NCBI GenBank assembly: GCA_963805625.1
Contig: CAWDVE010000014.1
Location: 96,001-160,000 of the forward strand
Length of the DNA: 64,000 nucleotides
Direction: 5' to 3'
Source of the DNA: an uncultured Candidatus Rokubacteria bacterium
GTDB lineage: Bacteria; Methylomirabilota; Methylomirabilia; Rokubacteriales; DASRDR01
Of this stretch, positions 32,206-56,597 are shown in pieces; position 1 is the first letter of the stretch; each line of letters starts with the position of its first letter. The position numbers and the translations under genes are program-made. The notes beneath the pieces are model-generated. The model worked only from the letters and a program-made list of their open reading frames with translations. It did no database searches and was not told the DNA's origin.

Positions 32206-32215
32206 CGCTCCCTCC

Positions 32216-33685: not shown

Positions 33686-33689
33686 GGGG

Positions 33690-35363: not shown

Positions 35364-35375
35364 CGGGGGGCCTCC

Positions 35376-38410: not shown

Positions 38411-38822
38411 CGCGAAAGTCCGCGACTGGATGCATCTGGGGGTGATCACGTGCTCGCCCGACACCCCGGCGGAAGAGGTCGCCGGCACCATGGCCGCCCA
38501 CGACGTCAGCGCGCTCGTGGTGGTCGACGCGGACGGCTACGCGGTGGGGCTGATCTCGCGCACGGACTTGGTCAATGCGACGTTCGTCCAGCCGTACCTG
38601 CGCCACTGGCGGGGCCTGAGCGCCCGCCACCTCATGTCGTCGCCCGTGATCAGCGTCCCCGAGGACACGCCTGTCGAGAGGGCGCTCGCGCTCATCCGTG
38701 AGCGGAAGATCCACCGGGTCGTCGTTACCGTCGCCGAGGGAGGCCGGGAGCGGCCGATCGGCATCCTGTCGGTCACCGACGTCGTCGGCCACCTCGGCCG
38801 GATCGAGGAGGCGCAGGCATGA
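38403..38822 (+). CDS. CBS-pair protein
   Basis: VRDWMHLGVITCSPDT..GLISRTDL..LMSSPVISV..IGILSVTDV; overlaps both neighbours. Confidence 0.88.
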   Translation: MDDAKVRDWMHLGVITCSPDTPAEEVAGTMAAHDVSALVVVDADGYAVGLISRTDLVNATFVQPYLRHWRGLSARHLMSSPVISVPEDTPVERALALIRERKIHRVVVTVAEGGRERPIGILSVTDVVGHLGRIEEAQA

Positions 38823-40498
38823 CCGAGGCACTCGCGTTCTCCCCGTTCGAGGAAAGCGCTCCCATCGAGGATCTCGGGACCAAGCAGCCCGGTACCTCGA
38901 AGGAGGCCCACGAGATCCAGTTCGTGCCTGCAGGTGTACTGGCGCTGGACGTCGAGGCGTACGTCGACGATTTCAACGCGCGGGTCATCGGCGCCTACGA
39001 GAAGGGCGCGGGCTCCCAGGATCTGCCGGCCGACGTGGGCGTCGCCCGGAGTCTCATCCCCGCCGGCACGGCCGCGCTCCGTGACTTCTCCTACCTGTCG
39101 CCGCTCCTCCCCGAGCTCCTGGCCGACCACTGCGTCGGATGCATGACATGCGTGACCGAGTGCCCGGACACGGCCATCCTGGGCAAGGCCGTCCCCGCCT
39201 CCCGCCTCGACGCCGAGCTCTCGCGGGTCGCTGACGACGCCGAGCGCGCCTTCCTCCGCGACCAGTGGGCCAAGACGCGGAAGTACTTCGAGGTGCCGGC
39301 GCGGAAGGGGCTCGAGGGCGCGATGTTCGGCATCTTCATCGATCCGACCAAGTGCAAAGGGTGTGCGGAGTGCGTCGAGGTCTGTGCGGACCTGGGCTAC
39401 CACGCGCTCCGCATGGTTCCGAAGGGCGAGGAGACCCTCGGCCGGTACCGTGAAGCCTTCCAGTTCTATCGGCGGGTCGGTCCGACGCCCAAGGAGTACG
39501 TGAACGAGAAGGCGCTTGCCGACATGATGCTGACGGACCAGTCGCTGCTCTACGTCGGCGGCGCGGGCTCGTGCATGGGCTGCGGCGAGGGCACCGCCAT
39601 TCGCATGATGGTCGCCGCCACCGCCTTCACTCACGGGCCGGAGGGCATGGCCATCGTCGCCGCGACCGGCTGCAACACCGTGTACACCTCCACGTATCCC
39701 TATAATCCCTACCTGGTTCCCTGGACCAACTCCCTCTTCGAGAACGCCCCCGCGGTCGCGCTGGGCGTCCGCGCCAAGTGGGACCAGCGCGGCTGGCAGG
39801 AGAAGCGGCTGTGGGTCTTGGGCGGTGACGGGGCCATGTACGACATCGGCTTCCAGTCGCTTTCGCGGATGCTCGCGTCGGGGATGGACATCAAGGTCCT
39901 GGTCCTGGACACGCAGGTGTACTCGAACACGGGCGGCCAGGTGTCCACCGCCTCCTTCCTCGCGCAGGATGCCAAGATGGCCGCGGTCGGCCCCGCAACA
40001 CCCGGCAAGACCGAGCGCCGGAAGGAGCTCGGGCTCCTCTGCCTCGCGCACCCCGAGGTCTTCGTGGCGCAGACGACAGCCGCTCACATCAACCACTTCT
40101 ACCGCGCCGTCATTGATGCCAACAGCTACCCCGGTCCGGCGGTCGTCATCGCCTACACCACGTGCCAGCCCGAGCATGGCGTGGGCGACGATCGGGCCTC
40201 GGCGCAGGCTCGGCTCGCCGTCGACTCGCGCGCCTTCCCGCTCTTCGTGCACGACCCCCGGAAGGGCGAGCGGATCGCCGAGCGGCTGTCGCTCCAGGGC
40301 AATCCCGACCCGAAAGAGGATTGGCACCGCCACCCGCAGACCGGGGAAGTGGTGGACTTCGTTACCTTCGCCCGCACCGAGGGCCGCTTCGCGCGGCAGT
40401 TTGATGCCGAGGGGCGTCCCTCCCCGGCGCTCTTCGCCGCCCAGGCCGACCGCTTGGCCAACTGGCGCCGGCTCCAGGAGCTGTCCGGACTCCGCTGA
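38819..40498 (+). CDS. 2-oxoacid:ferredoxin oxidoreductase C-terminal half (ferredoxin + TPP-binding)
   Basis: CVGCMTCVTECP, CKGCAECVEVC, SCMGCGE, AATGC, GGDGAMYDIG, YSNTGGQ. Confidence 0.9.
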   Translation: MTEALAFSPFEESAPIEDLGTKQPGTSKEAHEIQFVPAGVLALDVEAYVDDFNARVIGAYEKGAGSQDLPADVGVARSLIPAGTAALRDFSYLSPLLPELLADHCVGCMTCVTECPDTAILGKAVPASRLDAELSRVADDAERAFLRDQWAKTRKYFEVPARKGLEGAMFGIFIDPTKCKGCAECVEVCADLGYHALRMVPKGEETLGRYREAFQFYRRVGPTPKEYVNEKALADMMLTDQSLLYVGGAGSCMGCGEGTAIRMMVAATAFTHGPEGMAIVAATGCNTVYTSTYPYNPYLVPWTNSLFENAPAVALGVRAKWDQRGWQEKRLWVLGGDGAMYDIGFQSLSRMLASGMDIKVLVLDTQVYSNTGGQVSTASFLAQDAKMAAVGPATPGKTERRKELGLLCLAHPEVFVAQTTAAHINHFYRAVIDANSYPGPAVVIAYTTCQPEHGVGDDRASAQARLAVDSRAFPLFVHDPRKGERIAERLSLQGNPDPKEDWHRHPQTGEVVDFVTFARTEGRFARQFDAEGRPSPALFAAQADRLANWRRLQELSGLR

Positions 40499-40784: not shown

Positions 40785-41900
40785 ATGAGCGCCGACGGGC
40801 AGCCTGGGGGGCTGATCTTCGACGAGGCACCGCTCCGGGTCTACTGGGAGTTGACCCGGGCGTGTGATCTCGCCTGTCGGCACTGTCGCGCCGAGGCGAT
40901 CGCCCGGCGCGATCCCCGCGAGCTGACCTTGACCGAGGGACGCCAGCTGCTCGACGCGCTACGAGCGACCGCCACGCCTCCGCGCGTAGTGCTAACGGGA
41001 GGCGATCCGTTGAAGCGGCCCGACTTCTGGACGCTCCTCGAGCACGGGGTGGGGATCGGTCTTGGCGTCTCGGTCGCACCCAGTGCCACGCCGGCCCTCA
41101 CCACCGAGGTCGTCCGCCAGCTCCGGCGCGCGGGCATTGAAGCCATGTCGCTTAGCCTGGACGGCTCCGACGCCGCTCGGCACGACGGATTCCGCGGCGT
41201 GTCGGGCTGCTTCGCCCGGACGATGACGGCCATCCGAACGGCCGTCGAGGAAGGCATCCCGCTCCAGGTGAACACGCTCGCGACGGCCGAGACCCTCCCC
41301 GACCTCCCGGCCATCGCGGACCTGGTTGACGGGACGGGGGCCGCACGATGGAGCCTCTTCTTCCTCGTCCAGGTCGGCCGCGGCCGGACGCTCGACCAGC
41401 TGTCGCCCCGCGCGTGCGAGGCCCTTCTTGCCTGGCTCTGGCGGCGGGCGCAGCAGACCTCGCTCGTCGTCACGACGACCGAGGCTCCTCACTACCGGCG
41501 CGTGGCCCTCCAGCAGGCACGCGCGAAAGGGGCAGGCGGTCCCGAACCCCGAGTCGGTCCGACCCGACGGTCCGGCCTCGGCCTGCGCGACGGCAATGGG
41601 ATCATGTTCATCTCGCATACCGGGGAGGTCCAGCCGTCGGGCTTCCTCCCACTCACCGAGGGGAACGTGCGCACATCGAGCCCCCTCGATGTCTATCGGC
41701 AGAGCCCTGTCTTCCGGAGGCTCCGAGAGCCCGGACGTTTCGGCGGCCGGTGCGGCCGCTGCGAGTATCGGCAGATCTGTGGAGGCTCGCGGGCACGCGC
41801 CCACGCGGCCAGCGGCGATCCACTCGGGGAGGACCCGCTCTGCGCCTACGAGCCCGGCGTCCCCGACAAACCGCCGAGGGAGAGGTCAGCATGGGCATAG
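40785..41900 (+). CDS. Second TIGR04053-type radical SAM/SPASM protein (AhbD/NirJ-like)
   Basis: YWELTRACDLACRHC; TTEAPHYRR; PSGFLP..CGRCEYRQICGGSRARA..DPLC. Confidence 0.88.
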   Translation: MSADGQPGGLIFDEAPLRVYWELTRACDLACRHCRAEAIARRDPRELTLTEGRQLLDALRATATPPRVVLTGGDPLKRPDFWTLLEHGVGIGLGVSVAPSATPALTTEVVRQLRRAGIEAMSLSLDGSDAARHDGFRGVSGCFARTMTAIRTAVEEGIPLQVNTLATAETLPDLPAIADLVDGTGAARWSLFFLVQVGRGRTLDQLSPRACEALLAWLWRRAQQTSLVVTTTEAPHYRRVALQQARAKGAGGPEPRVGPTRRSGLGLRDGNGIMFISHTGEVQPSGFLPLTEGNVRTSSPLDVYRQSPVFRRLREPGRFGGRCGRCEYRQICGGSRARAHAASGDPLGEDPLCAYEPGVPDKPPRERSAWA

Positions 41901-42553
41901 CGCGTTTCGATCTCCAGGAGGCGACGATCGACCTTGACCGTCTCCTCACCAACACAGCGGACGGGGTGTGCGCCATCGGCGTCGATGGACGGATCGTGTT
42001 CTGGAACCGATCGGCGGAGCGCCTCCTCGGCTACACGGCCCGCGAGGTCGCCGGAAAGCCCTGCTGTGACGTCTTCGTTGGCCGCGACCCGGCCGGCAAT
42101 CGCCTCTGCTACCAGGGCTGCCACGTGCAGACGCTGGTGAAGCGGGGGGATGCCGTCGAGCACTTCGAGATGGCGACGCGCACGAAGGCCGGCCGACCCG
42201 TGTGGCTCGACATCAGCATCCTCGCCGTGCCCGGCACGCGGCGCGACGCGACGACGACCGTTCATCTCTTCCGCGACGTCACGACCGCGCACGAGGTGGA
42301 AACGCTCGTACGGGAGCGTCTCGCCCAGATGCGGCCCTCGTCCGACGACGACCAGCCGCCCTCGGATCTCACTCCCCGCGAGGTCACGATCCTGCGGTTG
42401 ATCGCCGGCGGTGCCAGCACGCGGGCCATGGCGGAGAAGCTCCACGTGAGCCCCGTCACCATCCGGAACCACGTCCAGCACATCCTGGGGAAGCTCGGCC
42501 TCCACAGCCGGCTCGAGGCAGCCGCCTACGCGACCCGCCGCGGGCTCGTCTGA
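41891..42553 (+). CDS. PAS-LuxR transcriptional regulator
   Basis: IVFWNRSAERLLGY PAS; LTPREVTILRLIAGG..TIRNHVQHILGKLG HTH. Confidence 0.9.
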   Translation: MGIARFDLQEATIDLDRLLTNTADGVCAIGVDGRIVFWNRSAERLLGYTAREVAGKPCCDVFVGRDPAGNRLCYQGCHVQTLVKRGDAVEHFEMATRTKAGRPVWLDISILAVPGTRRDATTTVHLFRDVTTAHEVETLVRERLAQMRPSSDDDQPPSDLTPREVTILRLIAGGASTRAMAEKLHVSPVTIRNHVQHILGKLGLHSRLEAAAYATRRGLV

Positions 42554-43336: not shown

Positions 43337-44188
43337 TCAGAGGCGGAAAAGCTCCACCGCGTTGTCGCGGATGAGCTTTCGCTTGGCTTCGGGCTTGAGC
43401 CCGAGCTGCTCGACCTGATCCAGGCTCTCTTTCCAGGGTAGCCCGTTCGTCCCCCAGAGGCACCGGTCCTGGCCCATCCGGCTCCCGATGAACTGGATGA
43501 CCTCGGGCTTGAGGTACTTCGGCATCCAGGCATCGATGCCGAGCCAGACGTTCTCCCACTTGTAGCAGACGGAGATCAGCTCCTCGACCCAGGGCCAGCC
43601 CGTATGCGCGCCGATCATCTTGAGGTCCGGAAAGTCGCAGGCGATCCGGTCGAGGTACATCGGGCGCGCGTGCTCGCTCGGCATCGCCTCGAGCACGTGC
43701 CCTACCTGCATGGACACGGGCACGTTCAGCTCGACACACTTGGCGAACAGTGGGTACATCTTCGGATCGTGGAGCGGAATGTCGAACCCGAAGATGTGCA
43801 CGTACACGCCCTTGAATCCGTGCTCGCGCACGGCGACCTCGATCTCCCGCAGGCTGTCCTTGATCCGGAAAGGATTGTAGCCGGCCAGCCCGACGAAGCG
43901 GCCGGGGTATGCCCGCGTGTACTGGGTCACTTCCTCGAGCGTGGTGTCCATGTACATCCATTTGTTCCAGTGCGACCACATCTTGGTCTGCGTGACGAAC
44001 ACCCGTTCGACGTTGGCCTCATCCATTTTCTGGACCATGGCACTGATCGAGTCAAACGAGGGCAGGCCTCCGATCGCGCGCTCCATGCGGCAGATCAGCT
44101 CGCCCTTCTTGGCGTCGTTCCACTTGGCGATGAATTCCGGAGTGGCGACATAGTACATGAAGTCGATCGCCGGGACGTTCTGGGCCAT
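43337..44188 (-). CDS. Amidohydrolase_2 family protein
   Basis: YPGRFVGLAG, MYPLFAKCVELNVPV, IGAHTGWPW, LWGTNG. Confidence 0.88.
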   Translation of the reverse strand: MAQNVPAIDFMYYVATPEFIAKWNDAKKGELICRMERAIGGLPSFDSISAMVQKMDEANVERVFVTQTKMWSHWNKWMYMDTTLEEVTQYTRAYPGRFVGLAGYNPFRIKDSLREIEVAVREHGFKGVYVHIFGFDIPLHDPKMYPLFAKCVELNVPVSMQVGHVLEAMPSEHARPMYLDRIACDFPDLKMIGAHTGWPWVEELISVCYKWENVWLGIDAWMPKYLKPEVIQFIGSRMGQDRCLWGTNGLPWKESLDQVEQLGLKPEAKRKLIRDNAVELFRL

Positions 44189-44301: not shown

Positions 44302-44519
44302 TCAGCACATCGTCAATCCGCCGCTCACCGATAGCGTCTGGCCGGTGACGAAGTCCGATCCGGGCGAGGCGAAGAAGGCAACCGCCGCCGCGATCTCCTC
44401 GGGCGTGGCCACCCGGCCGAACGGGGTCGCGCGGGTCACGGCCTCGAGGATCTTCTCCATCTTCGGGGATTGATCCCGGAGGGACTGTAGCAGCGGCGTC
44501 TCGGTGAGCCGAGCTTCAA
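44302..44519 (-). pseudogene. Internally deleted SDR (BadH-like C-terminus)
   Basis: AAGGAGG + TTG AAG CTC start joined out of frame to LTETPLL...PFGRVATPEEIAAAVAFFAS..FVTGQTLSVSGGLTM. Confidence 0.78.
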
Positions 44520-44531
44520 GGGGACCTCCTT

Positions 44532-45323
44532 TCAGCGGTCCTTCCATACCGGCGAGCGCTTCTGAAGGAAGGCACGCAACCCTTCCTCGGCATCCTCGGT
44601 CTGCATGAGCTGCCAGAGGTAGATCTCCTCCAGCTCCGAGAGCGCCGCGTCGAATCGGTCACCCTGCCCTCGCCGTACCGCCTGCTTGGTGAGTCGCAGG
44701 ATCGCCGCACTCTTGTCGGTGAAGGCAGCGATGGCCGCCGACACCGCGGACTCAAAGTCGCTGGCCGGCACGACCCGGTCTACCAAGCCGATCCGCTCCG
44801 CAGCCCGCGCCGGGAGCGTCTCGCCGGAGAGCAGGAGCTGGATGGTCCGTGGGATGCCGATCCGCGCCGGGTAGTGGACGGCCGCGATCGGTGGGAACAC
44901 GCCCACCTTGATCTCGGGCTGCCCAAAGGTGGCACTCTCGCTCGCGATCACGAGGTCGCAGAACGCGGCCAGCTCCGCCCCGCCGCCAAGCGCCGGCCCC
45001 TGGACCGCCGCCACCGTCGCGCACTCCAGTGCGTTGATAATCCGGAAGGCCCGGTGGAAGGCCGCCAACATGGGTCGGGCCCGGTCGCCGAGATGGTCCT
45101 CGACGGCCACTCCCGCACAGAACGCCCGACCCTCGGCGGCAAGAAGCAGCACCTTCACTTCCGCGCGGCGACCGACCTCTTCGAGCGCGGTGTCGAGCTC
45201 CTCGATGGCGTCGAGCGTGAGGATATTGAGCGGCGGCCGCGCCAGCGTGACGCGCGCCACGCTCTCGTCGAAGGTCAGCCGGATCGCGTGGTCTTCCACG
45301 GCGCTCTCGTGTCGGCCCAGCAT
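44532..45323 (-). CDS. dch: Cyclohexa-1,5-diene-1-carbonyl-CoA hydratase (crotonase family)
   Basis: LARPPLNIL, FCAGVAVEDH, GQPEIKVGVFPP, LEEIYL.QLMQTEDAEEGL.AFL.KR; adjacent to bcr genes. Confidence 0.8.
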   Translation of the reverse strand: MLGRHESAVEDHAIRLTFDESVARVTLARPPLNILTLDAIEELDTALEEVGRRAEVKVLLLAAEGRAFCAGVAVEDHLGDRARPMLAAFHRAFRIINALECATVAAVQGPALGGGAELAAFCDLVIASESATFGQPEIKVGVFPPIAAVHYPARIGIPRTIQLLLSGETLPARAAERIGLVDRVVPASDFESAVSAAIAAFTDKSAAILRLTKQAVRRGQGDRFDAALSELEEIYLWQLMQTEDAEEGLRAFLQKRSPVWKDR

Positions 45324-45431: not shown

Positions 45432-45743
45432 CTACCGGAGAGGCTCTAGCCGGGGAGCTTCCGCGTCGCTCGAGATCTCCGGGAGGTCGCAGCAGCGTTG
45501 CGCGCATCCAGCGCGCAGCGGCCAGAGCGTACAGCCCCGGATCCGCAGGAGCGGCCGGCTCAAAGCGGCCGTCCACGCCGCATGCCCCGCATCGACCGCG
45601 ACGGCGGCCGGCAGGTGGGTTTCCGGGCAGCGTAGCCACCGCGGCGCCCGGAAACGCAGGTACACGCTCCCCGCGACGGGGACCAGGACGAATACAAACG
45701 CGACCACCGCGAGTCCCGCCAGGACCGCCCAGGGGTCTGTCAT
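45432..45743 (-). CDS. Small membrane-anchored Cys-motif protein
   Basis: AAGGAGG RBS; N-terminal TM; CPET..GCTLWP..GCAQRCC. Confidence 0.75.
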   Translation of the reverse strand: MTDPWAVLAGLAVVAFVFVLVPVAGSVYLRFRAPRWLRCPETHLPAAVAVDAGHAAWTAALSRPLLRIRGCTLWPLRAGCAQRCCDLPEISSDAEAPRLEPLR

Positions 45744-45866: not shown

Positions 45867-45957
45867 ATGAGGCGATCGCCTCATTTGCCTGAACCCGGCG
45901 ACCCAGAAAACCCCCCGGATGCGGCGAACCAAGCTCCGACCTGATGCGATCGCGTCA
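45867..45957. promoter_or_regulatory. Pair of related palindromes in the divergent intergenic region
   Basis: ATGAGGCGATCGCCTCAT (45867-45884, perfect) and TGATGCGATCGCGTCA (45942-45957). Confidence 0.6.
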
Positions 45958-46049
45958 CGGAAATGAAGCGCTTGCCGGATTCCCGACGTCCCGGTGAACA
46001 GCTTACCGTCAGGCCAGACGATCGACTGTTCGGTGGGAGGTTCGGGCCG

Positions 46050-46694
46050 ATGATCGGAGCACGGTACGAGGGCATCCTGGAGGCGGCGTGCGACGTCATC
46101 GCGCGCCGTGGCTTCCAGCAGGCCTCAATCCGCGAGATCGCCAACGCCTCCGGCCTCTCGCTGGCCGGCCTGTACCACTATGTCGGTGGGAAAGACGAGC
46201 TACTGTTCCTGGTCCTGGACCGTGCCCTCGACCGGCTGCTCGCCGCACTCGAGGCCGCGTGCCGCGGGACGAGCACTCCCGGGGAGCGTCTTCACGCGCT
46301 GGTCGAGACCCATCTCGACTTCGCCTCGCGCGACCCGCACGCGCTCAAGATCGTCAACCGAGACTACGACCTGCTCGGCGAGCCGCACCGCTCAGAGGTC
46401 GCCGCCAAGCGGCAGGAGTACCTCCGTCGCGGGCTCGCGGTCCTGCGCGAGCTCGACCCGCACGAGCGCTCGGAAGAGGAGCTGTTCTCGGCGACGAACC
46501 TTCTCCTGGGCATGCTGAACGGCATCGGGACCCGACCGTTCGTCCGCTCCGGCCAGAGTGTCCGGACGCTCGCGAACGAGGTCACGAGCCTCTTCCTTCA
46601 CGGCTTTCTCGATAGAGGCACGGGGAGCTCGGGCCATGATCCGGAGCCTGTGGAGATGGCTGCAGGGCCAGATGGTACGGGGCGTGCCGGATAG
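46050..46694 (+). CDS. TetR-family regulator (KstR2-like C-terminus)
   Basis: ILEAACDVIARRGFQQASIREIANASGLSLAGLYHYVGGKDELL. Confidence 0.92.
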   Translation: MIGARYEGILEAACDVIARRGFQQASIREIANASGLSLAGLYHYVGGKDELLFLVLDRALDRLLAALEAACRGTSTPGERLHALVETHLDFASRDPHALKIVNRDYDLLGEPHRSEVAAKRQEYLRRGLAVLRELDPHERSEEELFSATNLLLGMLNGIGTRPFVRSGQSVRTLANEVTSLFLHGFLDRGTGSSGHDPEPVEMAAGPDGTGRAG

Positions 46695-46769: not shown

Positions 46770-47924
46770 ATGAAGCCGGACGCCCTCCTCGAGCACTGCC
46801 GGCAGCTGATCGCCGAACCGCTTGGGAACGTCGCGCGCCAGTGGAAGGCCGGCCATCCGGATGGCCGGGCCGTCGCCGTCTACCCTGTGTGGGCCCCGGC
46901 CGAGCTGATCCACGCAGCGGGCATGCTGCCGCTGGCTCTTCTCGGCGGCGGGGCGTCAGTCGAGCTCACGCACGCGGACGCCCGATTTCAGTCCTTCGTC
47001 TGCTCGATCGCCAAGTCCTCGCTCGAGCTGGGCTTCCAGGGGCTCGTCAAGGGGGTCGACGGGTTCATCTTCTCGAACATCTGCGACGTCGCTCGGAACC
47101 TTGGGAGCATCTACCGGCGGAACTTCCCGGACGCCTTCGTGGAGTACCTGCACCTGCCGCAGAACTCGACCTCACCCGCCGTCGCCGGCTACACAGCCGC
47201 CGAGCTCCGTCGACTGGCGGACCGATTCGAGGAGGCTTTCGCGCTGCCGGTCACCGAGGCCGCGCTCGAGAAGAGCATCGAGACCTACAACGCGCTTCGC
47301 GCACGGCTACGCGCTCTCTACGCGTTCCGGATCGAGGAGCCGCAGAAGCTCTCCACGACCGAGCTCTACGCGATCCAGCGGGCAACGACGCTGGTCCCAC
47401 CCGAGGTAAGTCTCGGATGGCTCGATACCCTGCTGGCCGAGCTGCCTCTTCGCTCGGCCAAGCCGCGCGACCGGCTCCGCGTCGTGATCGAAGGCGCCTT
47501 CTGCGAGCAGCCGCCGCTTGGCCTCCTGGAGGTACTCGAGGAAGCCGGCTGTTACGTCGTGGAAGACGATCTCCTGCTCGGCTGGCGCTGGTTCACGGCC
47601 GACGTGGACGGAAGCGGAGATCCGTTCGGACGACTCGGGCGCGCCTACGTGGATCGCGCCGTTCCCTCCTCCACCCGCCACGAGAGCCGCGTTCATCGCG
47701 CCGACGGTCTCATCGAGAAGGTGCGCCGGTCCCGCGCCGACGCGGTCGTGTTCATGCCAGCCAAGTTCTGTGAGCCGGCCCTCTTCGACTACGTCCTCAT
47801 GAAGCAGGGACTGGACCGCGCCGGCATCCCGCATCTCCTGGTCGAGTTCGAGGAGAAGATGTGGACCTTCGAGCGAACCCGGAACGAGATCGAGACCTTC
47901 GTCGAGTCCATGCTGTTCGACTAG
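46770..47924 (+). CDS. bcrC: Benzoyl-CoA reductase subunit C (Thauera-type)
   Basis: ARQWK, ELIHAAGMLPL.LLGGG, QSFVC, ICDV.RNL, PQN, G.FCEQPPL, GCYVVEDD, FCEPAL. Confidence 0.82.
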   Translation: MKPDALLEHCRQLIAEPLGNVARQWKAGHPDGRAVAVYPVWAPAELIHAAGMLPLALLGGGASVELTHADARFQSFVCSIAKSSLELGFQGLVKGVDGFIFSNICDVARNLGSIYRRNFPDAFVEYLHLPQNSTSPAVAGYTAAELRRLADRFEEAFALPVTEAALEKSIETYNALRARLRALYAFRIEEPQKLSTTELYAIQRATTLVPPEVSLGWLDTLLAELPLRSAKPRDRLRVVIEGAFCEQPPLGLLEVLEEAGCYVVEDDLLLGWRWFTADVDGSGDPFGRLGRAYVDRAVPSSTRHESRVHRADGLIEKVRRSRADAVVFMPAKFCEPALFDYVLMKQGLDRAGIPHLLVEFEEKMWTFERTRNEIETFVESMLFD

Positions 47925-47942
47925 GAGCGGGGAGGACTGTTC

Positions 47943-49226
47943 ATGGCCACCGCCGCCACGACCCAGCCGGTCACCGAGCGCCAGTACCAGGGTCGGATCC
48001 ACGTGCGCTCGCGCCAGCTCATGCTGGACTGGATGCGAGAGCTCTCGCGCGCCGAAGCCGAAGGTCGGACGACAGGCGCGCTCATGATCTCGGGGAACTG
48101 TGTCGAGCTCCTGCGGGCCTGCCACGTCATCCCGATGTTCCCCGAGGTCGTCGCGCTCCAGAACGCGATCCGCCACAAATCGCTTCCACTGATCCTGAAG
48201 GCCGAGCAGGCGGGATACTCGAGCGACAACTGCGCCTACGTCAAGGCCGATGTCGGGCTCTTCCTGGACGGCGGGATGGGGCCCGGAAAGTCGATCCCCT
48301 TCCCCACGATCATCGTGTGCAACTACGTGGGCTGCAACGTCTACGTCAAGTGGTTCGAGCACCTGGCCGACCTGAGCGGCGCGCGGCTGTTCATGCTCGA
48401 CGTGCCCTTCGCCCGGACCGACGTACCGAGCCCCGAGGACGTCCGCTACGTGGTGAGCCAGCTCGAGGAGTTGATCGCCCTGTGCGAGGGCGTGACCGGA
48501 CGGAAGTTCGACATCGACGAGCTGCGGGAAGTCCTGGGCCACGCCGCCCGCGCCGAGGACGGCTACGCACGCTGCAAGCACCTCACGAAGCACCACCCCG
48601 CGCCGTTCGACTCCTACTTCGATTCGATCAACATGATGGGGCCGATCAACGTGCTCCGGGGCACTCCCGAAGCGGCCGGCTTCTTCGACGAGGCGGTGGC
48701 CGAGTTCGAGGGTCTGGTGGAGGCCGGGCTCGGTCCGCTCTCCGAGGAGCGCTTCCGTACCGTCATCGAGGGGCCGCCCCCCTACCCCTACTACCGGAGC
48801 TTCCGCAACCTCTTCACCCGCTGGGGCGCGGTGGCCGTTCAGTCGACCTACTCGACAGTCGGCGGGATCTGGGAGTTCGGGTTCCGCAAGGATCCACGCC
48901 GTCCGCTTGAATCGATCGCCGAGCAGATGCTCCGCGAGAACCTGACCAACCGCTCGATCGTCGCCCGCTACGGGCAGATCAAGCGGTACGTGGAGGAGTG
49001 GGAGGCCGACGCGCTCGTCATCCACTCCATCAAGTCATGCCGGCTCTTCTCCGCCGGGCAGGGCGACATGCGCGACTACTTCACGCGGGAGCTGGGCGTG
49101 CCGACGCTGATGGTGGAGTCCGACCTGGAGGATCCCCGGTACTACGCGGAAGCTCAGATCAAGAACCGGATCGACGCGTTCTTCGAGTCGCTCGAGCACA
49201 AGAAGGTCGTGGCAGGCGCGCGCTAG
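47943..49226 (+). CDS. bcrB: Benzoyl-CoA reductase subunit B
   Basis: CAYVKADVG, GC..YVKWFE, KFDIDELRE, VIEGPP, VGG.WEFGFR, SIKSCRLFSAGQ, ESDLEDPRY. Confidence 0.85.
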   Translation: MATAATTQPVTERQYQGRIHVRSRQLMLDWMRELSRAEAEGRTTGALMISGNCVELLRACHVIPMFPEVVALQNAIRHKSLPLILKAEQAGYSSDNCAYVKADVGLFLDGGMGPGKSIPFPTIIVCNYVGCNVYVKWFEHLADLSGARLFMLDVPFARTDVPSPEDVRYVVSQLEELIALCEGVTGRKFDIDELREVLGHAARAEDGYARCKHLTKHHPAPFDSYFDSINMMGPINVLRGTPEAAGFFDEAVAEFEGLVEAGLGPLSEERFRTVIEGPPPYPYYRSFRNLFTRWGAVAVQSTYSTVGGIWEFGFRKDPRRPLESIAEQMLRENLTNRSIVARYGQIKRYVEEWEADALVIHSIKSCRLFSAGQGDMRDYFTRELGVPTLMVESDLEDPRYYAEAQIKNRIDAFFESLEHKKVVAGAR

Positions 49227-49255
49227 GGCCTGAGGAAGGCGAGGAGCGCCCGGAC

Positions 49256-51991
49256 ATGGCGGGACCGAGCCCGGTGGTCGAGAGGATCCCCGTCTACTGC
49301 TACCAGTGCGTCGCCGGCCCCGACCTCCTGAAGGTCGTGGTCCGTGACGGCGTGGCGGTGGGGGTGGAGCCGAATCACGACGTCGCCGAGGTGCATCCCG
49401 CATGCGGCAAGGTCTGCGTCCGCGCCTACGGGCTGATCCACAAGCTCTACAACCCCGCGCGTGTCACGACGCCGATGCGCCGGACGAACCCACGGAAGGG
49501 CCGCCACGAGGACCCGGGCTGGGTGCCGATCTCGTGGGACGACGCGCTCGGGATCCTGACCGTCCGGCTCCGGGCCATCCGCGGTCGCGGGCTCGTCGAC
49601 GAGGCCGGCTATCCGCGCCTGGCGGCCACGTTCGGCGCGGGCGGCATCGCCCCGGCCTACCTCGGCACCTTCGCCGCTTTCCTGGCGGCGTGGGGGCCCG
49701 TGGACCAGGGCATCGGCAGCGGCCAGGGCGTCAAGTGCTACCACTCAGAGCACCTCTACGGGGAGTTCTGGCACCGCGCCTTCACCGTCGCGGCCGACGT
49801 GCCCCGATCGGACCTGGTTCTCTCCTTCGGATACAACGGCGACGCCTCCGGCGGGGTGACGGGGGTCTTTCGTCACGCCGAGGCGCGAGCGCGAGGTCTC
49901 CGTTGGATCCAGCTCGAGCCGCACCTGTCGGTCACCGGGGCTGGCGCCGAGGAGTGGGTGCCGATCCGTCCCAAGACCGACGCGGCCGTCCTGCTCGCGC
50001 TTCTGCACGTGATCCTCCTCGAGCACGACTGGCGCGCGGTCTGCGACGTCCCGTTCCTGACTGCAATGACCAGCTCGCCGTATCTGGTTTCCTCGGGCGG
50101 CCACTACCTCCGCGATCCCTCGACCGACAAACCCCTCGTCTGGGATCTGGACCGGGATCGTCCAGTCCCGTTCGACGATCCTGCCTGCCGGCAGCCCGCG
50201 ATGGACGGGAGCTACCTCGCCGCCGGGGTCGAGGTAGGCGCCGACGGCGCGCGCCGAACCGTCGCGGAGCGCGTGCGGCCCGCCTTCGTCCACCTCGTCG
50301 ACCACGTGCGGCCGTACACGCCGGAGTGGGCCGCCGCGATCGCCGACGTGCCAGCCGCGACGATCCGCCGACTGGCCGAGGCCTACCTGCGCCACGCGCG
50401 GGTCGGGGCGACGATCGAGCTCGACGGGGTGAGCTACCCGCACCGTCCCGTGGCAATCGTCCTCGGCAAGACCGTGACGAACGGGTGGGGCGGCTACGAG
50501 TGCTGCTGGGCCCGCACCGTGCTGGCGGGGCTGGTCGGAGCCCTGGAGGTGCCGGGAGGGATCGTGGGCACCACCGTGCGGCTGAACCGGCCGGCCCAGA
50601 ACCGCCTCGACTCGGTCCGCCCCGGCCTCGACGGATTCATGGAGCAGCCGGTGAACGCCACAGGCAAGGACACCTGGGCCAGCGCGCCCCACGTCCGGAA
50701 CGCGTACCGGACGCTCGTCCCCCTCGCCGGCGACTCTCCGTGGTCACCCGCGCTCGGTCCGGCTCACCTGCCCTGGTTGTTCCTCGACGAGCCGCCCGAT
50801 CGCTGGCCGGCGCCGACGCTGCCAGACGTGTGGATCATCTACCGCACGAACCCGGCCATCTCCAACTGGGATACTGGGCGCATCGAGCGCGAGCTCGAGC
50901 GCTTCCCCTTCGTGGCCGCCTTCGCGTACACGCAGGACGAGACGAACTGGTACGCGGACCTGCTTCTCCCGGAGGCGACGGACCTCGAATCGCTTCAGCT
51001 CTACCGGATCGGCGGCACCAAGTACATCGAGCAGTTCTGGCAGCACACGGGATGGGCGCTCCGCCAGCCGGTGCTGTCGGCGGGAAGCGGACCCGCCGAC
51101 ACGCGCGACCTCACGGACATCGCCACCGAGCTGGCCGCGCGCGTCGGTGTCCTCGACGAGTATCTCGCGGCCCTCAACCGGGGCTCCGGCACCACCGTGT
51201 CGCTGCGGGGCGAGGGGTACGACTTCAGGCTCCCCCCCGGCTCCCGCCCATCGGCGGCAGAGATCTGGGACCGTGTATGCCGCGCCGCCACCCGGTCGCT
51301 CTCCGGCGGCGGCGTGGAGCACGACCTCACCTGGTTCCGTGAGCATGGGGCCTTCTTCGTGCCGTTCGAGACGGGCCGCTACTACCTGCACACCACGATG
51401 GCCGCCAAGGGCCTGCGGTACGAGCTGCCCTACCAGGAGCGGATCCTGCGGATGGGCGAGGAGCTCCGCGCGAGGCTCCACGAGCGTGGCATCGTGTGGT
51501 GGGATGCCCAGCTGGAGGAGTACCAGCCGCTGCCCCGCTGGAAGGACTTTCCCGCGATCTGGCAGGCAACGGCCCGGGCCAACGGAAGAGACCCAAAGGA
51601 CTTTCCCTTCTGGCTCCTCACGAGCCGCTCGATGCAGTACTCCTGGGGCTCGAACGTGTCGCTGCCGATCCTCGCCGACGTGGCGCGCCACGTGACTGGC
51701 CACTTCGGCATCATCCTGAACCGCGGGTCGGCCCGGCGCCTCGGCGTCGGGGACGGAGACCTCGTCGAGATCGAATCGCCGACCGGCCGGACACACGGGC
51801 GTGCGATCCTCCGGGAGGGAGTGCGCCCGGACGTCGCCGTCATCCTCCAGCAGTTCGGCCACTGGGCCACGCCGTTCGCCCGGGACCTCGGGATGCCCAG
51901 CCTGAACCAGGTCGCGACCATGGACCTGGCGCTCACCGACGCCACCGGGAGTGGGGCGGACCTCGTCCCCGTGGCAATCCGGAGGGCGTGA
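49256..51991 (+). CDS. padB: Phenylacetyl-CoA:acceptor oxidoreductase molybdopterin subunit
   Basis: YCYQCVAGPDLL, GKVCV.AYGLI.K.YNP, RTNPRKGRHEDPG, GSGQGVKCYHSEHLYGEFWHRAF; no Tat signal. Confidence 0.8.
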   Translation: MAGPSPVVERIPVYCYQCVAGPDLLKVVVRDGVAVGVEPNHDVAEVHPACGKVCVRAYGLIHKLYNPARVTTPMRRTNPRKGRHEDPGWVPISWDDALGILTVRLRAIRGRGLVDEAGYPRLAATFGAGGIAPAYLGTFAAFLAAWGPVDQGIGSGQGVKCYHSEHLYGEFWHRAFTVAADVPRSDLVLSFGYNGDASGGVTGVFRHAEARARGLRWIQLEPHLSVTGAGAEEWVPIRPKTDAAVLLALLHVILLEHDWRAVCDVPFLTAMTSSPYLVSSGGHYLRDPSTDKPLVWDLDRDRPVPFDDPACRQPAMDGSYLAAGVEVGADGARRTVAERVRPAFVHLVDHVRPYTPEWAAAIADVPAATIRRLAEAYLRHARVGATIELDGVSYPHRPVAIVLGKTVTNGWGGYECCWARTVLAGLVGALEVPGGIVGTTVRLNRPAQNRLDSVRPGLDGFMEQPVNATGKDTWASAPHVRNAYRTLVPLAGDSPWSPALGPAHLPWLFLDEPPDRWPAPTLPDVWIIYRTNPAISNWDTGRIERELERFPFVAAFAYTQDETNWYADLLLPEATDLESLQLYRIGGTKYIEQFWQHTGWALRQPVLSAGSGPADTRDLTDIATELAARVGVLDEYLAALNRGSGTTVSLRGEGYDFRLPPGSRPSAAEIWDRVCRAATRSLSGGGVEHDLTWFREHGAFFVPFETGRYYLHTTMAAKGLRYELPYQERILRMGEELRARLHERGIVWWDAQLEEYQPLPRWKDFPAIWQATARANGRDPKDFPFWLLTSRSMQYSWGSNVSLPILADVARHVTGHFGIILNRGSARRLGVGDGDLVEIESPTGRTHGRAILREGVRPDVAVILQQFGHWATPFARDLGMPSLNQVATMDLALTDATGSGADLVPVAIRRA

Positions 51992-51992
51992 C

Positions 51993-52628
51993 ATGCGCTG
52001 GGGCATGGTGATCGACCTCGGCCGTTGCGTCGGCTGCCAGACCTGCACGATCGCCTGCAAGCAGGAGCACGGGCTGCCGGCGGGGACGTCCTGGCGCTTC
52101 GTCGCCGACTGCGAGGTGGGTGCGTACCCCGACGTCCGGCGCGTGTTCTTGCCGATGCAGTGCATGCATTGCGCCGAGCCACCGTGCGTTCCGGTGTGCC
52201 CGACCGGCGCCTCACGCCAGCGCGAGGACGGGATCGTCTGGGTCGCCTACGACGCGTGCGTCGGCTGCGGCTATTGCGCGATGGCGTGCCCGTACCGGGC
52301 GCGCCACCTCGTGCACGAAGCCGATCCCTATTTCGCCGAGCCGATTCCGCCCGAGCGGCTCAGCGTCCCGCCCGAGCGCCGGGGCGTCATGACCAAGTGC
52401 ACCTTCTGCAAGGAGCGGGTGGACGACGGCCGGGCCCGGGGCCTCCGGCCCGGGGTGGATCCCGACGCCACACCGATGTGCGCGGTGGCATGCATCACCG
52501 GCGCGATCGTCTTCGGCGACCTCGACGATGCCGGCAGCGCCGTCGCGAAGCTTCTCGCCCAGGGCGATGCCGTCCCGTTGCTGCCCGAGTGCGGCACCGC
52601 ACCCTCTGTGTTCTACCGGACGAGGTGA
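51993..52628 (+). CDS. padC: 4Fe-4S subunit of phenylacetyl-CoA:acceptor oxidoreductase
   Basis: CVGCQTCTIAC, CMHCAEPPCVPVCP, CVGCGYCAMACP, KCTFC..PGVDPDATP.C. Confidence 0.82.
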   Translation: MRWGMVIDLGRCVGCQTCTIACKQEHGLPAGTSWRFVADCEVGAYPDVRRVFLPMQCMHCAEPPCVPVCPTGASRQREDGIVWVAYDACVGCGYCAMACPYRARHLVHEADPYFAEPIPPERLSVPPERRGVMTKCTFCKERVDDGRARGLRPGVDPDATPMCAVACITGAIVFGDLDDAGSAVAKLLAQGDAVPLLPECGTAPSVFYRTR

Positions 52629-52632
52629 GCAA

Positions 52633-53532
52633 ATGGGCCCAATCGCCGCACGGCCACTGGAGGGCCCGGCACACGAGAGCCGGATACCCCTACTCCCGCC
52701 GATCGCCCAGGCCCTCTGGGGCTGGCCCGCCGTCCTTAACTTCGCCCTGGGGGGGCTCGGCGCCGGCCTCTACGTCATGGCGGCCGTGACCGCCGGATTC
52801 GCCCCGTCGCCGGCGCTCCGGATCGCCGCGTGGCTCGGGCCGCTCCTCGTCCTCGGAGGCTTTGGCGCCGTCGCCACGGAGGCCGGCCGCCCCTTCCGCG
52901 GTCCGCGTGTCCTCGCGCGCGTCCGGACTTCGTGGATGTCGCGCGAGCTCTGGCTCGGCGGCGTCTTCACGGTCCTCGCTGCCGGCGGCCTTCTCCTCGA
53001 GGAAACAATTCTGCGCGCCCTGGCGGCCGCCGCAGGGGCCGCTCTCGCGCTGGCCCAGGGGCAGATCCTGCGGCACGCCCGGGGCGTGATGGTCTGGGCG
53101 GTGCCCCCGATGCCGTTCGTCTTCCTCACCTCAGCCCTCGTCTCCGGCTCGGGCCTGCTCATCGTGCTGGAGGCGGGGAACGGGTCATCGCTGGACCAGC
53201 TACTCGGAGCGGCTCTCACCGTCCTGATCGTGCACGTCTGCGCCTGGTCGGTGCTCGTCAGCTGGTCGCATGACGGGGCGTTCCGCCAAGGTGTCCGCCC
53301 ACTCCGCGAGGGGCCGAGTGCCCTGGTCATCGTCGTCGGAGGCTATGTCCTCCCGTCACTGCTCGCCGCCCTCGCCATCGCTCTGCCCCGGCTCGGGCCG
53401 TCCCTCGCGGCCGCCGCCGGCGCTCTGATGGCCGCCGGTCAGGTCTTTGCGAAGGCCGCCGTCATCCTGAAGGCGGGTCAGCTCAGACCGGTCTCGCTCA
53501 CGCTGCCGCCGCTCCAGAGGAGGTCACCATGA
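52633..53532 (+). CDS. padD: DmsC/NrfD-type membrane anchor
   Basis: [32 protein letters not shown]; multiple TM. Confidence 0.75.
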
Positions 53533-54344
53533 TCGCCGGCGCCGGAGTCGACGTGGGTTCGACCCAGACCAAGGCCGTCATCATCGACGGCGCGCGCCGG
53601 ATCGTGGCGCGAACCCTGATCGCAACGGGGGCGAACGTCTCCCGCGCCGGTGAGCGCGCGTTCATCGCCGCCTGCGAGACCGCGGGGCTTCCGCGCGAGG
53701 CGGTGAGCTACGTCGTCGGTACCGGCTACGGCCGCTACAAGGTGACGTTCGGCGACGCCCAGATCACCGAGATCACCTGCCATGCCCGGGGCGCACACTT
53801 CCTCTTCCCCGGGTCGCGAACCGTGATCGACATGGGCGGCCAGGACACGAAGGCGATCCGCGTGAACCCGGACGGCTCCGTGATGGACTTCTCGATGAAC
53901 GACAAGTGCGCGGCCGGCACCGGTCGCTTCCTGTCCGCGGCGGCCGACGTCACGGGCATCGGCCTCGACGAGATCGGGCCCGTGTCCCTCAAGGCCAAGG
54001 CGCCGGTGCGGCTCACGTCGGTCTGCACGGTCTTCGTCGAGTCCGACATCATGTCCTACCTCGCCCAGCGGAAGACGGTTGAGGACATCCTGGGCGGGGT
54101 CCACAAGGCGATCGCCACGCGGACGATGTCACTGGTCCGGCGCGTGGGCGTCGAGGACGAAGTCACGTTCACGGGCGGCGTCTCTCGCAACGTCGGCATG
54201 GTCCGGGCACTCGAGAACGTCCTCGGGCGGCCTCTCAACGTGAGCCCGGACGGCCACTTCATTGGGGCGCTCGGAGCGGCCCTCTTCGCTCTCGAGCGGG
54301 CCGAGGCCGCGGCCGGCGCCGTCGTCCCGGCAGGAGGGAGCTGA
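53529..54344 (+). CDS. bcrA: Benzoyl-CoA reductase ATPase subunit (short BcrA-like, ASKHA fold)
   Basis: [48 protein letters not shown]. Confidence 0.72.
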
Positions 54345-54347
54345 GTC

Positions 54348-55148
54348 ATGGTGGTCGCCGGTATCGACCTCGGGTCAGGCACCACGAAGTGCGTGCTCGT
54401 CGACGGCGAGCGGATGGTGCGCGGGCACGGCATCGTCCGGACCAAGGCCGACTTCGAGAAGGTCGCCCGGGAGGTCCTCGATGCGGCGCTGGCGGACGCG
54501 GGCCTCTCGTCCGAGGCGGTCGCCTACACGGCGACTACCGGCCTCGGCCGCAGCGCGATCCCATTTCGCGACATCCAGATCACCGACCTCACCTGCGGGG
54601 CGCGGGGAGCGGCGACCCTGTTTCCCGCCACGCGCTTCGTCCTCGACATCGGGGCCCAGTGCTCGCGCGCGATCCGACTCCGCGACGGCGGCAAGGTCAA
54701 GGAGTTCCACATGAACGAGAAATGCGCAGCGGGATCGGGCGGCTTTCTCGAGCGGGCAGCCAAGTATCTCGAGGTGACGGTCGCCGACATCGGCCCCCTG
54801 TCGCTCGCCGCAGCACAACCCCAGCCGATCTCGAGCGTCTGCGCGGTTCTCGCCGAGTCCGAGATCATCAACCACATCTCGGAGGGCGTGGCGGTGGAGA
54901 ACATTCTCCGGGGGATCCACGACTCCCTGGCCGACCGGGCGCTGTCCCTACTCAAGCGCGTGGGGCTCGACGGGGATGTCACCCTCATCGGGGGCGTGGC
55001 GCTCCAGGCCGGCATGGTCGCGGCGCTCCGGGACAAGCTCGGCGTGATGGTCAACGTGCCCGACGAGCCTCAGCTGACCACCGCTCTCGGCGCCGCCGTC
55101 CTCGGTCTCCAGCGCCTGCAGCGGCTCGGCGCCCCGGCGGCAGCCTGA
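54348..55148 (+). CDS. bcrD: Benzoyl-CoA reductase ATPase subunit D
   Basis: AGIDLGSG, ATTG, VLDIGA..RAIR, CAAGSG.FLE, SSVCAVLAE, NILRGIH. Confidence 0.8.
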   Translation: MVVAGIDLGSGTTKCVLVDGERMVRGHGIVRTKADFEKVAREVLDAALADAGLSSEAVAYTATTGLGRSAIPFRDIQITDLTCGARGAATLFPATRFVLDIGAQCSRAIRLRDGGKVKEFHMNEKCAAGSGGFLERAAKYLEVTVADIGPLSLAAAQPQPISSVCAVLAESEIINHISEGVAVENILRGIHDSLADRALSLLKRVGLDGDVTLIGGVALQAGMVAALRDKLGVMVNVPDEPQLTTALGAAVLGLQRLQRLGAPAAA

Positions 55149-55188: not shown

Positions 55189-55635
55189 ATGAGCCGCGCG
55201 GACGTGATGGTGCGCCCCCTGGAGCCGACCGACATCGACGCCATCGTGACGATCGACGAGAAGCTCTCGGGTCAGACGCGGAAGGACTACTGGCAGCGGC
55301 GGATCGAGATCGCGAGCCTCCGGCCGCCCTGGATGTCGATGGTGGCGGAAACGGACGGCCGGGTCGCCGGCTTCCTCTTCGGCTGGGTCGGCGAATCGGA
55401 GTTCGGGATCCCCCAACGTACCGGGTGGGTCGACCTGATCGGGGTCGACCCGGCCTACCGCAGTCGGGGCGTCGCCCACGCCCTCCTCGACCGGTTCGTC
55501 GAGAGCGGCCGGGAGCTCCGGGCGCTCGAACGGGTCGCTACCCTCATCGACCTCGGCCAGGTAGACGTCCGCGAGTTCTTCCTGCGCCAGGGCTTCCAGC
55601 CCGGGCGGATGGTCCAGCTGGAGCGCGCGGTGTGA
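55189..55635 (+). CDS. GNAT acetyltransferase (BadL-like context)
   Basis: VRPLEPTDIDAIVTIDE, VAETDGRVAGFL, IGVDPAYRSRGVA. Confidence 0.85.
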   Translation: MSRADVMVRPLEPTDIDAIVTIDEKLSGQTRKDYWQRRIEIASLRPPWMSMVAETDGRVAGFLFGWVGESEFGIPQRTGWVDLIGVDPAYRSRGVAHALLDRFVESGRELRALERVATLIDLGQVDVREFFLRQGFQPGRMVQLERAV

Positions 55636-55825: not shown

Positions 55826-55969
55826 GTGAACGGGGTCATCGACTACTGGTGCAACATCTTCACCCCCGAGGGGATCCGGGCGAGCTTCACCGAGCAGCCG
55901 GAGCTGGCGGAGGTCTTAAGCTCTGAGCGGCCGGATGAGGGCGGTGACGTGCTGGCTTCCACGAGCTGA
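55826..55969 (+). pseudogene. Truncated amidohydrolase-like N-terminus
   Basis: GAAGGAG RBS, MNGVIDYWCNIFTPEGIRASFTEQPELAEV, then unrelated sequence and a stop after 47 aa. Confidence 0.55.
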
Positions 55970-56018: not shown

Positions 56019-56597
56019 ATGTCCTGTCACCTCCACCTGAAGCGCCCGGCCACGGCCCAGGCCGGCCAGGCGACCGCGGACCTTCGGGACGAGCACGAGG
56101 TGATCCTTCAGGCGCTCGCCGTGCTCGAGCGGGTCGCCAGCCGCCTCGCGTCCGGCCAACCCGTAAGCGACTCGACGCTGGCCGAGCTCGTCCAGTTCCT
56201 GCAGACATTCGCCGACCGCTGCCACCACGGCAAGGAGGAAGACCAACTCTTCCCCGCCATGCGGGCCAAGGGTGTCGGAGACACCCTTGCCGTCTTCAAG
56301 GAAGAACACGAGGAAGGGCGGCGCTACCTCCGCACCATCGCGAGCGGCGCCTCCAACGCCGAGCGGGCGGCTGCGGCGCGTCGCTATGTCGCCATGCTGC
56401 AAGGCCACATCGAACGCGAGAACGAGGTCCTGTTTCCTATGGCCGATGGGCTCTTCACCGCCGAGGAGCACGGCGCCCTGGCGCGCGCATACGAGGACGT
56501 GGAGCGCCAGGTCGCGGGCGCCGGCGCCCACGAGAGGCTCCTGACCACGCTGGCCCGGCTCGACGCCGCCGTGCCGCGGGACCGGGCCACGCCATGA
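56019..56597 (+). CDS. Hemerythrin (HHE) domain protein
   Basis: DEHEVI, DRCHHGKEEDQLFP, EEHEEGR, GHIERENEVLFP. Confidence 0.92.
   Translation: MSCHLHLKRPATAQAGQATADLRDEHEVILQALAVLERVASRLASGQPVSDSTLAELVQFLQTFADRCHHGKEEDQLFPAMRAKGVGDTLAVFKEEHEEGRRYLRTIASGASNAERAAAARRYVAMLQGHIERENEVLFPMADGLFTAEEHGALARAYEDVERQVAGAGAHERLLTTLARLDAAVPRDRATP

Follow-up and report, generated by a model that had tools for sequence, protein, structure and literature searches.

Genes of a PadBCD-like molybdoenzyme nested among those of a predicted class I aryl-CoA reductase in Rokubacteriales, probably two separate enzymes of one anaerobic phenylacetate route

The pad clusters of Thauera, Aromatoleum and Sedimenticola encode PadBCD, a molybdoenzyme whose reaction on phenylacetyl-coenzyme A (CoA) is described in passages of PMC9765128 and PMC4453571. 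Described aryl-CoA reductases include the Thauera-type BcrCBAD, the MBR type MbdONPQ (PDB 9g87), whose mbd operon and TetR repressor are covered in PMC4424350, and the BZD type, for which active-site positions of the BzdO subunit are described in a passage of PMC11971306. Here, a window of 64,000 nucleotides (nt), meaning the whole stretch of DNA that was analysed, from an uncultured soil bacterium of Candidatus Rokubacteria (GCA_963805625.1, contig CAWDVE010000014.1, positions 96,001 to 160,000) was found to carry genes of both kinds in a single row, referred to below as the module. Probably the row codes for two distinct enzymes on an anaerobic route that takes phenylacetate through benzoyl-CoA and is built of divergent parts, and not for one fused machine.

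A preliminary description of this DNA had reported a tight and intact order in which three pad genes split the reductase genes, and the coordinates of the open reading frames confirm it (Table 1). Seven consecutive reading frames on the forward strand, none with internal stops, follow each other in the order C-B-Mo-FeS-anchor-A-D (Mo, molybdenum protein; FeS, iron-sulphur subunit). The gaps between them are 18, 29, 1, 4, -4 and 3 nt, the negative one being an ATGA common to the anchor and A-like genes, and this spacing points to co-transcription. The absence of PadEFGHI from the window was likewise confirmed and extends to the whole source genome, where the best match to the PadG model reaches 274 bits against a cut-off of 700. 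This genome measures 7.27 Mb and was rated 99.9% complete with 6.3% contamination. Close homologues of the encoded proteins are named Rokubacteria, Methylomirabilota or NC10, with a few other labels.

For the Mo enzyme, a padBCDEFGHIJ locus (L101) was used as reference, in which PadE, PadG, PadH and PadI pass the NCBIfam cut-offs and PadF lies at its cut-off. The Mo protein is 56% identical to PadB of this locus over 916 aligned residues, the FeS subunit 51% to PadC and the anchor 37% (156 aa) to PadD. In a tree of 46 rows, it shares a clade with PadB of Proteobacteria (SH-aLRT 100, distant outgroup of about 30% identity); a place outside the PadB clade would have spoken against its assignment. 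Rokubacteriales-type Mo proteins form their own subclade there, in a quick tree with a long-branch warning at its root. The segment around Cys161, the putative Mo ligand, is identical to that of L101 and of L088, and most close homologues are labelled phenylacetyl-CoA:acceptor oxidoreductase by JGI. No signal peptide was seen by eye in the trio, consistent with a cytoplasm-facing enzyme. No NCBIfam model scored above its cut-off for the Mo protein and no close solved structure was found (best E-value 1e-26); an AlphaFold model of the subunit had a mean pLDDT of 58.9, with the active-site region below 50, and was not used. Compared with the described pad clusters, the order of the three genes and the putative active-site stretch are shared, as are, in fuller rows, a PaaK/PadJ-type ligase and an ABC importer. 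The module differs in lacking padEFGHI and an upstream hot-dog thioesterase gene, in the placement of the trio between reductase genes, in its subclade separate from proteobacterial PadB and in the loss of the anchor gene in two loci (L041 and L131). In L220 (G255) and L229 (G037), genes like padEFGHI stand behind another Mo enzyme, with 27-31% identity to that of the window, so this kind of oxidoreductase may also be fed by other oxidases of the arylacetyl type.

The reductase genes had been labelled as Thauera-type bcrC, B, A and D, and this label was not upheld. All four subunits score below the Bcr equivalog cut-offs (TIGR02259-02263; 290/421, 306/487, 208/578 and 195/313 bits), which a canonical Bcr set (L070) passes. 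A protein near-identical to MbdO of PDB 9g87 also misses them (222 bits), so scores below these cut-offs do not exclude a reductase. The gene called bcrA encodes only 271 aa against 430 aa for verified BcrA, lacking an N-terminal part of about 160 residues, and the A and D subunits together form a pair of short activators of the MBR type, heteromeric and with two cluster cysteines in each; the names MbdP and MbdQ were assigned from gene order and length in the mbd row of the MbdO-like protein. The best solved relatives of B and C are MbdO and MbdN (E-values 2e-73 and 4e-73, against 3e-36 and 7e-45 for HadB/C). On average, B has 38% identity with Bcr rows, 36% with Mbr rows, 28% with dehydratase-like rows and 25% with Bzd rows.

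Each of B, C, A and D forms a separate clade in its tree. B stands in its own clade (100/99), united with Bcr and Mbr (100/99), in a tree of 19 rows, in which Mbr is weakly favoured as its sister (77/78) and a grouping with Bcr is not rejected (p 0.23). FastTree placed the clade beside Mbr at 91, and smaller trees gave no resolved sister. B and C thus lie outside the MbdO/MbdN clade, B in its own clade at 100/99 beside Mbr at 100/100. Grouping of B with 2-hydroxyacyl-CoA dehydratases was rejected by the approximately unbiased (AU) test (p 0.0006), with dehydratase rows that were chosen by best model match and are themselves below the HadB cut-off; the grouping that would have spoken against a reductase thus did not appear. 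Glu68, Cys97, Tyr99, Cys131, Tyr303 and Cys366 of B map to the BzdO active-site positions given in the passage of PMC11971306, and the Glu, both Tyr and the three Cys are invariant. At Val306 and Phe369, B resembles Bcr and differs from Mbr, which has Val at 369, a position aligned with the pocket residue Leu383 of BzdO; these two residues weakly favour plain benzoyl-CoA as substrate. Features of the BZD type were not found: C lacks the six-Cys double-cubane set of BzdN, the position of His131 in BzdO is Tyr in B, and the bzd models stay below cut-off. In the broad sense of class I, the dimer within the Bcr/Mbr radiation, the Glu with three Cys and the heterodimeric activator are all present, and the enzyme is likely a third class I lineage beside Bcr and Mbr, with MBR-type activators, predicted to dearomatise an aryl-CoA. 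With MbdONPQ it shares the short activators, a TetR-type regulator and an amidohydrolase in the row; it differs in B and C, which are about 36-37% identical, in the order C-B against O-N (B-C), in the Bcr-like residues of B and in a row without MbdY/Oah or a Zn-type Had. With the Thauera type it shares the order C-B-A-D, the VGG and CxxF motifs and a nearby Dch-like hydratase, without the dch-had-oah-fdx set. Outside the module type, reductases of the MBR clade were seen in Chloroflexota-labelled genomes, in the Rhodocyclaceae family and in one Methylomirabilota genome (L182, L183, L185 and L188), and the distribution of MBR-type enzymes thus reaches beyond methylbenzoate degraders. In L133, B of G089 has Arg at the cluster ligand Cys131 and is possibly inactive, or the sequence is in error.

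To follow the arrangement among relatives, 201 Methylomirabilota genomes were surveyed; as relatives share kinship, the counts describe distributions and are not tests. Mo matches occurred in 54 genomes at E-value 1e-50, of which 50 were kept at an identity of at least 60%, and B matches in 57 genomes at 1e-20, of which 56 were kept at 59% or more. Six genomes with a stand-alone Mo copy at 63-65% (G023, G035, G066, G151, G171, G197) were set aside; such a stand-alone PadB-clade trio, with a different anchor and no ligase or reductase nearby, is seen in six genomes of the order (L060, L063 and L233). Both enzymes, as Rokubacteriales-type matches, were present in 43 genomes: B lies directly before the Mo gene in 36, genes intervene in four, and the two are on separate contigs in three. 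Among 49 Methylomirabilota-type loci compared (two pairs being the same contig twice, and many ending before the order is readable), the complete order B-Mo-FeS-anchor-A can be read in 24, so the nested order that the preliminary description proposed to search for does recur and is neither chance nor an assembly artefact. Its contrast with the separate pad and bcr clusters of Thauera and Aromatoleum held only in part: the two are commonly near each other in Proteobacteria too, with about 9 kb between them in G241 and G259, for example, and only the insertion between reductase genes is special.

Other orders exist, namely C-B-A-D-hemerythrin-Mo-FeS-anchor in L052, L053 and L141, C-B-A-Mo-FeS-D in L131, and C-B-A-D without pad genes in L133 and L135-L138. 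Deletion scars remain in two of the last: between full-length B and A, a stub of 22 Mo codons is left in L137, and 90 Mo codons together with anchor fragments in L138. The cluster-type Mo gene is missing from 13 of the 56 B-carriers, and the deepest branch of the B clade already has the contiguous order. Most likely the nested order arose by insertion of the three pad genes, as a cassette, into a C-B-A-D operon; they would have been placed a second time in L131 and lost later from some rows. The alternative orders and the losses argue against an obligate joint complex. Two further gene contexts were seen: in G115, a solitary second B gene (80%; L139:8818-10176) that follows methylmalonyl-CoA-mutase-like genes and has no C, A or D with it, and a BoxB/PaaA-like diiron gene (L136:2451-3572) in one row with the oxygen-sensitive reductase genes.

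The step between the two enzymes is best seen in fuller rows. In L123 and L124, which are complete, the row continues with GNAT, oxidoreductase gamma, GltD-like subunit, alpha, beta, PaaK, hydratase, dehydrogenase, amidohydrolase and hemerythrin genes; L122 with L262 holds the same continuation with an ABC importer in between. Partial rows are those of L122, L125, L261 and L262, and several genera are represented. Because ligase, oxidoreductase, hydratase and dehydrogenase genes stand in these rows, the idea that peripheral and central pathways are joined in one row of genes fits, with the correction that the reductase is not of the Thauera type. The alpha subunit of this linked oxidoreductase was found in 15 of the 201 genomes at E-value 1e-110, ten of them at 69% or more, and all ten have both enzymes. 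Eight linked alpha subunits and three that stand beside padBCD-padJ in betaproteobacterial loci form one clade (SH-aLRT 100; quick tree of 30 rows), apart from PadG and from unlinked relatives, and the three betaproteobacterial genomes have no PadG above cut-off. The four genes likely encode a non-orthologous phenylglyoxylate oxidoreductase. In the source genome, the search for padEFGHI and a phenylacetate-CoA ligase returned only the latter, as a PaaK unlinked to the row and 72% identical to the row's ligase.

Ring-processing genes accompany the module with less constancy. The Dch-like crotonase is 50% identical to the hydratase beside the MBR-type reductase in L182. Amidohydrolase matches were found in 28 of the 201 genomes, 27 of them at 78% or more and 25 of these with B. 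Amidohydrolases canonically carry HxH and GTD motifs; the N-terminal HxH is missing here and GTN stands in place of GTD. The protein is a candidate ring opener, with an accessory role at least as likely: a true Oah stands next to it in the mbd row, which argues against ring opening there. As a universal partner of such reductases it was rejected, not being found in nine of ten outside genomes tested (five Bcr-type; four of five Mbr-like). With the Rhodopseudomonas-type bad/ali branch (BadH, BadI, AliB), the module shares a BadH-like dehydrogenase in the row (330 bits, L064), and BadI-like, BadH-like and AliB-like genes occur together elsewhere in the source genome; it differs in that all are below cut-off, the BadI-like protein scoring higher as MenB and missing from 14 of the 20 carriers tested. 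In G114 and G111, a BadI/MenB-like gene shares its contig with the module.

The following scheme, in which each reaction and the roles of the replacement genes are predicted, would join these parts. A PaaK-type ligase, present in complete copies, would activate phenylacetate, and the PadBCD-type membrane molybdoenzyme would oxidise phenylacetyl-CoA to phenylglyoxylyl-CoA, passing electrons to quinone, which is said to be the acceptor of PadBCD. The oxidoreductase (gamma, a GltD-like NAD(P) subunit with 4Fe-4S, alpha and beta) would replace PadEFGHI and yield benzoyl-CoA and reduced ferredoxin. The ATP-driven class I reductase would dearomatise the benzoyl-CoA formed downstream, and the ring would be processed further by the Dch-like hydratase, the BadH-like dehydrogenase and then a BadI-like hydrolase or the amidohydrolase. 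Insertion of the pad genes would put both steps under one TetR-led promoter. A more specific version is possible, if doubtful: a Rokubacteriales pathway of three unstudied parts, comprising a third permanent-type class I benzoyl-CoA reductase subclass, a non-orthologous oxidoreductase for phenylglyoxylate, which has a GltD-like NAD(P) subunit and is shared with some Betaproteobacteria, and a ring opener of amidohydrolase fold with an altered metal site that replaces Oah/BadI.

Several observations weigh against this scheme. PadG is above cut-off in none of the 201 genomes (the control L101 passes), and 33 of the 43 module carriers, including the source genome, have neither PadG nor the linked oxidoreductase, most of these assemblies being fragmented. 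The PaaK of the source genome also occurs in six of six same-genus genomes without the module. Oah was found in none of the 201 genomes (positive controls over cut-off), and a close BadI/MenB-like gene (at least 86%) in only six of 20 carriers tested, and in none of ten non-carriers. The hot-dog thioesterase accompanies 45 of 47 proteobacterial pad loci and none of the 49 Methylomirabilota-type loci. PadB-clade paralogues occur outside pad clusters, so membership of the clade does not fix the substrate, and the PadB reference was defined by gene order and the PadE-I models and not by a characterised PadB sequence. The source genome has no NarG, and its dehydrogenase gene is broken.

The preliminary description had also raised a different aryl-CoA substrate for both enzymes; no positive evidence for it was found, and it was kept as a rival. 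Here the Mo enzyme would act on an arylacetyl-CoA with a hydroxy, methyl or halo group on its ring, and the reductase would take the corresponding aryl-CoA, like MBR; we consider this unlikely. The MbdP-type short activators would fit, as would the amidohydrolase common to the mbd row and also found in G237, TetR control as in mbd (PMC4424350), downstream enzymes that all fall below their cut-offs and the weak pull of B towards Mbr (77/78). These are set against the Bcr-like Val306 and Phe369, a Mo active-site stretch identical to canonical PadB, the PaaK-type ligase in the row and a grouping of the Rokubacteriales-type B with Bcr that the data do not reject. It is improbable that the two enzymes are co-regulated and unconnected in most carriers, the Mo enzyme doing no more than supply the respiratory chain with electrons, phenylglyoxylate being released or handled by general enzymes, and the reductase serving benzoyl-CoA derived from benzoate or 4-hydroxybenzoate. 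The many carriers without a recognisable phenylglyoxylate oxidoreductase would agree with this, together with the benzoate ligase and Hcr-like genes of the source genome, its two fused IORs and a thiamine diphosphate (ThDP) enzyme that could take 2-oxoacids, and the loss of pad genes in two relatives; yet complete rows occur in several genera, the counts of absence come from fragmented genomes, and tight nesting persists in 36 genomes.

A physical supercomplex, in which the Mo/FeS module hands electrons to the reductase instead of ferredoxin, is very improbable. The overlapping genes, the anchor gene missing in two loci and ferredoxin matches in none of 49 Methylomirabilota-type loci against six of 47 proteobacterial ones could be read in its favour. 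However, each enzyme occurs without the other, three different gene orders exist, the source genome has a separate ferredoxin, and the level of quinone is far too positive for a reaction placed at -622 mV in a passage of PMC11971306. That B and C are a 2-hydroxyacyl-CoA dehydratase acting on the product of a Mo hydroxylase is scarcely credible: the superfamily is the same, NCBI names some homologues so and B has Tyr for His131 of BzdO, but Bcr and Mbr also have Phe or Tyr there, the AU test rejects the grouping, two different activator genes are present, and on chemical grounds mandelyl-CoA has no beta hydrogen to eliminate.

In the source strain, some downstream genes of the row have been lost. 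Against the same-genus locus L055, its dehydrogenase gene has an internal deletion of about 540 nt and a second amidohydrolase is reduced to 31 codons, and the ABC importer of L055 has no close match. One contig of sequencing run X1, which may be the source sample, spans the deletion junction with one mismatch and shows that the deletion is present in the DNA; in run X2, a contig agrees at 99% as far as the junction and carries other sequence beyond it, and close strains probably keep the gene. With no orthologue to fill the link between the enzymes, this copy of the module is probably in decay or depends on enzymes encoded outside the row. All seven core genes are undamaged, and benzoyl-CoA of other origin may therefore still be a substrate of the reductase. 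Benzoate-CoA ligase, BoxB and BoxC are above cut-off in the source genome and an Hcr-like trio is just below, by which benzoyl-CoA is predicted to be a real intermediate there; AOR-like genes gave weak matches, and the only B-type gene is that of the module. In L252 (G000:C9:55259-62423), an Hcr-like trio lies directly upstream of boxC and boxB, joining anaerobic and aerobic benzoyl-CoA steps.

In the surroundings of the module, the repeat and palindrome conserved upstream are likely regulator sites. A promoter scan found no sigma-70-like sites and four terminator-like sites against 2.7 expected; an FNR-box pattern matched six times (3.45 expected), in no case upstream of the row. RNA runs X17-X20 yielded short contigs only, and plasmid searches found no close named reference. 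Oxidase genes similar to those upstream flank the module in L035, L044, L051, L065 and L140, which suggests a low-oxygen respiratory island that could accept the Mo enzyme's electrons. The split oxidoreductase is also carried with a module gene by 19 of its 22 carriers within the order and is a possible source of reduced ferredoxin; as a substitute for PadEFGHI it was set aside because it also occurs in 12 of 18 genomes of a family without the module (f6).

Table 1. Features of the window in order of position (strand + is the forward strand)
Feature	Position	Strand	Basis and remarks
Heme-copper oxidase-like genes with heme/cytochrome b accessory genes	28806-35900	-	upstream of module; names from reading translations
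Split pyruvate:ferredoxin-type oxidoreductase, CBS gene in between	36416-40498	+	in 34/201 genomes
PAS-LuxR-type regulator	41891-42553	+	recurs near module, 19/49 loci
Amidohydrolase-2-fold protein	43337..44188	-	tracks reductase; 48% to gene directly after mbdQ
BadH-like short-chain dehydrogenase remnant	44302..44519	-	internal deletion against L055
Dienoyl-CoA hydratase-like crotonase	44532..45323	-	best NCBIfam match Dch, 166 bits, cut-off 292.5
Small membrane protein with conserved Cys	45432-45743	-	no Pfam match; also beside module in L055, L126, L130, L132, L137
Inverted repeat, consensus GCCTCAT-N4-ATGAGGC, degenerate in this window	45952-45969	+	alignment of 20 upstream regions
Palindrome CGAAC-N4-GTTCG	46019-46033	+	alignment of 20 upstream regions
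TetR-family regulator heading the row	46050..46694	+	family search; 34/49 loci
C/N-type subunit of predicted aryl-CoA reductase	46770..47924	+	384 aa; conserved Cys78, Cys105, Cys334
Catalytic B/O-type subunit of predicted aryl-CoA reductase	47943..49226	+	427 aa; residues match BzdO active-site positions
PadB-clade molybdopterin enzyme (Mo)	49256..51991	+	911 aa; begins directly at CxxC cluster motif
PadC-like 4Fe-4S subunit (FeS)	51993..52628	+	211 aa; 51% to PadC of L101
PadD-like membrane anchor	52633..53532	+	299 aa; weak DmsC match; around six hydrophobic segments; 37% to PadD (156 aa)
Short ATP-dependent activator subunit, MbdP-type (A-like)	53529..54344	+	271 aa; 63% to MbdP; Cys127 and Cys166
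Second activator subunit (D-like)	54348..55148	+	266 aa; 42% to MbdQ, 42% to BcrD; Cys126 and Cys165
GNAT acetyltransferase, usual next gene after D	55189..55635	+	family search; 23/49 loci
Second amidohydrolase remnant (31 codons)	55826..55918	+	whole in L055
Hemerythrin-domain protein, recurrent neighbour	56019..56597	+	17/49 loci

The literature searched, as listings and the beginnings of abstracts and with subscription papers thinly covered, had nothing relevant on this arrangement or on Rokubacteria with benzoyl-CoA or phenylacetate, and the reductase lineage may already stand in a published tree; passages of PMC10803450 do not mention the phylum. Most likely, the nested gene order is a curiosity and not a new machine: two known kinds of enzyme, with an unstudied reductase lineage and partly replaced accessory enzymes. 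Three enzymes are offered for testing, the new reductase lineage, the replacement of PadEFGHI and the candidate ring-opening enzyme, and there is a demand for class I reductases as ring-reducing biocatalysts. The module is present in about one fifth of the sampled genomes (43/201) of an abundant soil phylum, and since the standard Bcr, PadG and Oah markers miss it, this capacity for oxygen-free breakdown of aromatic compounds would be overlooked.

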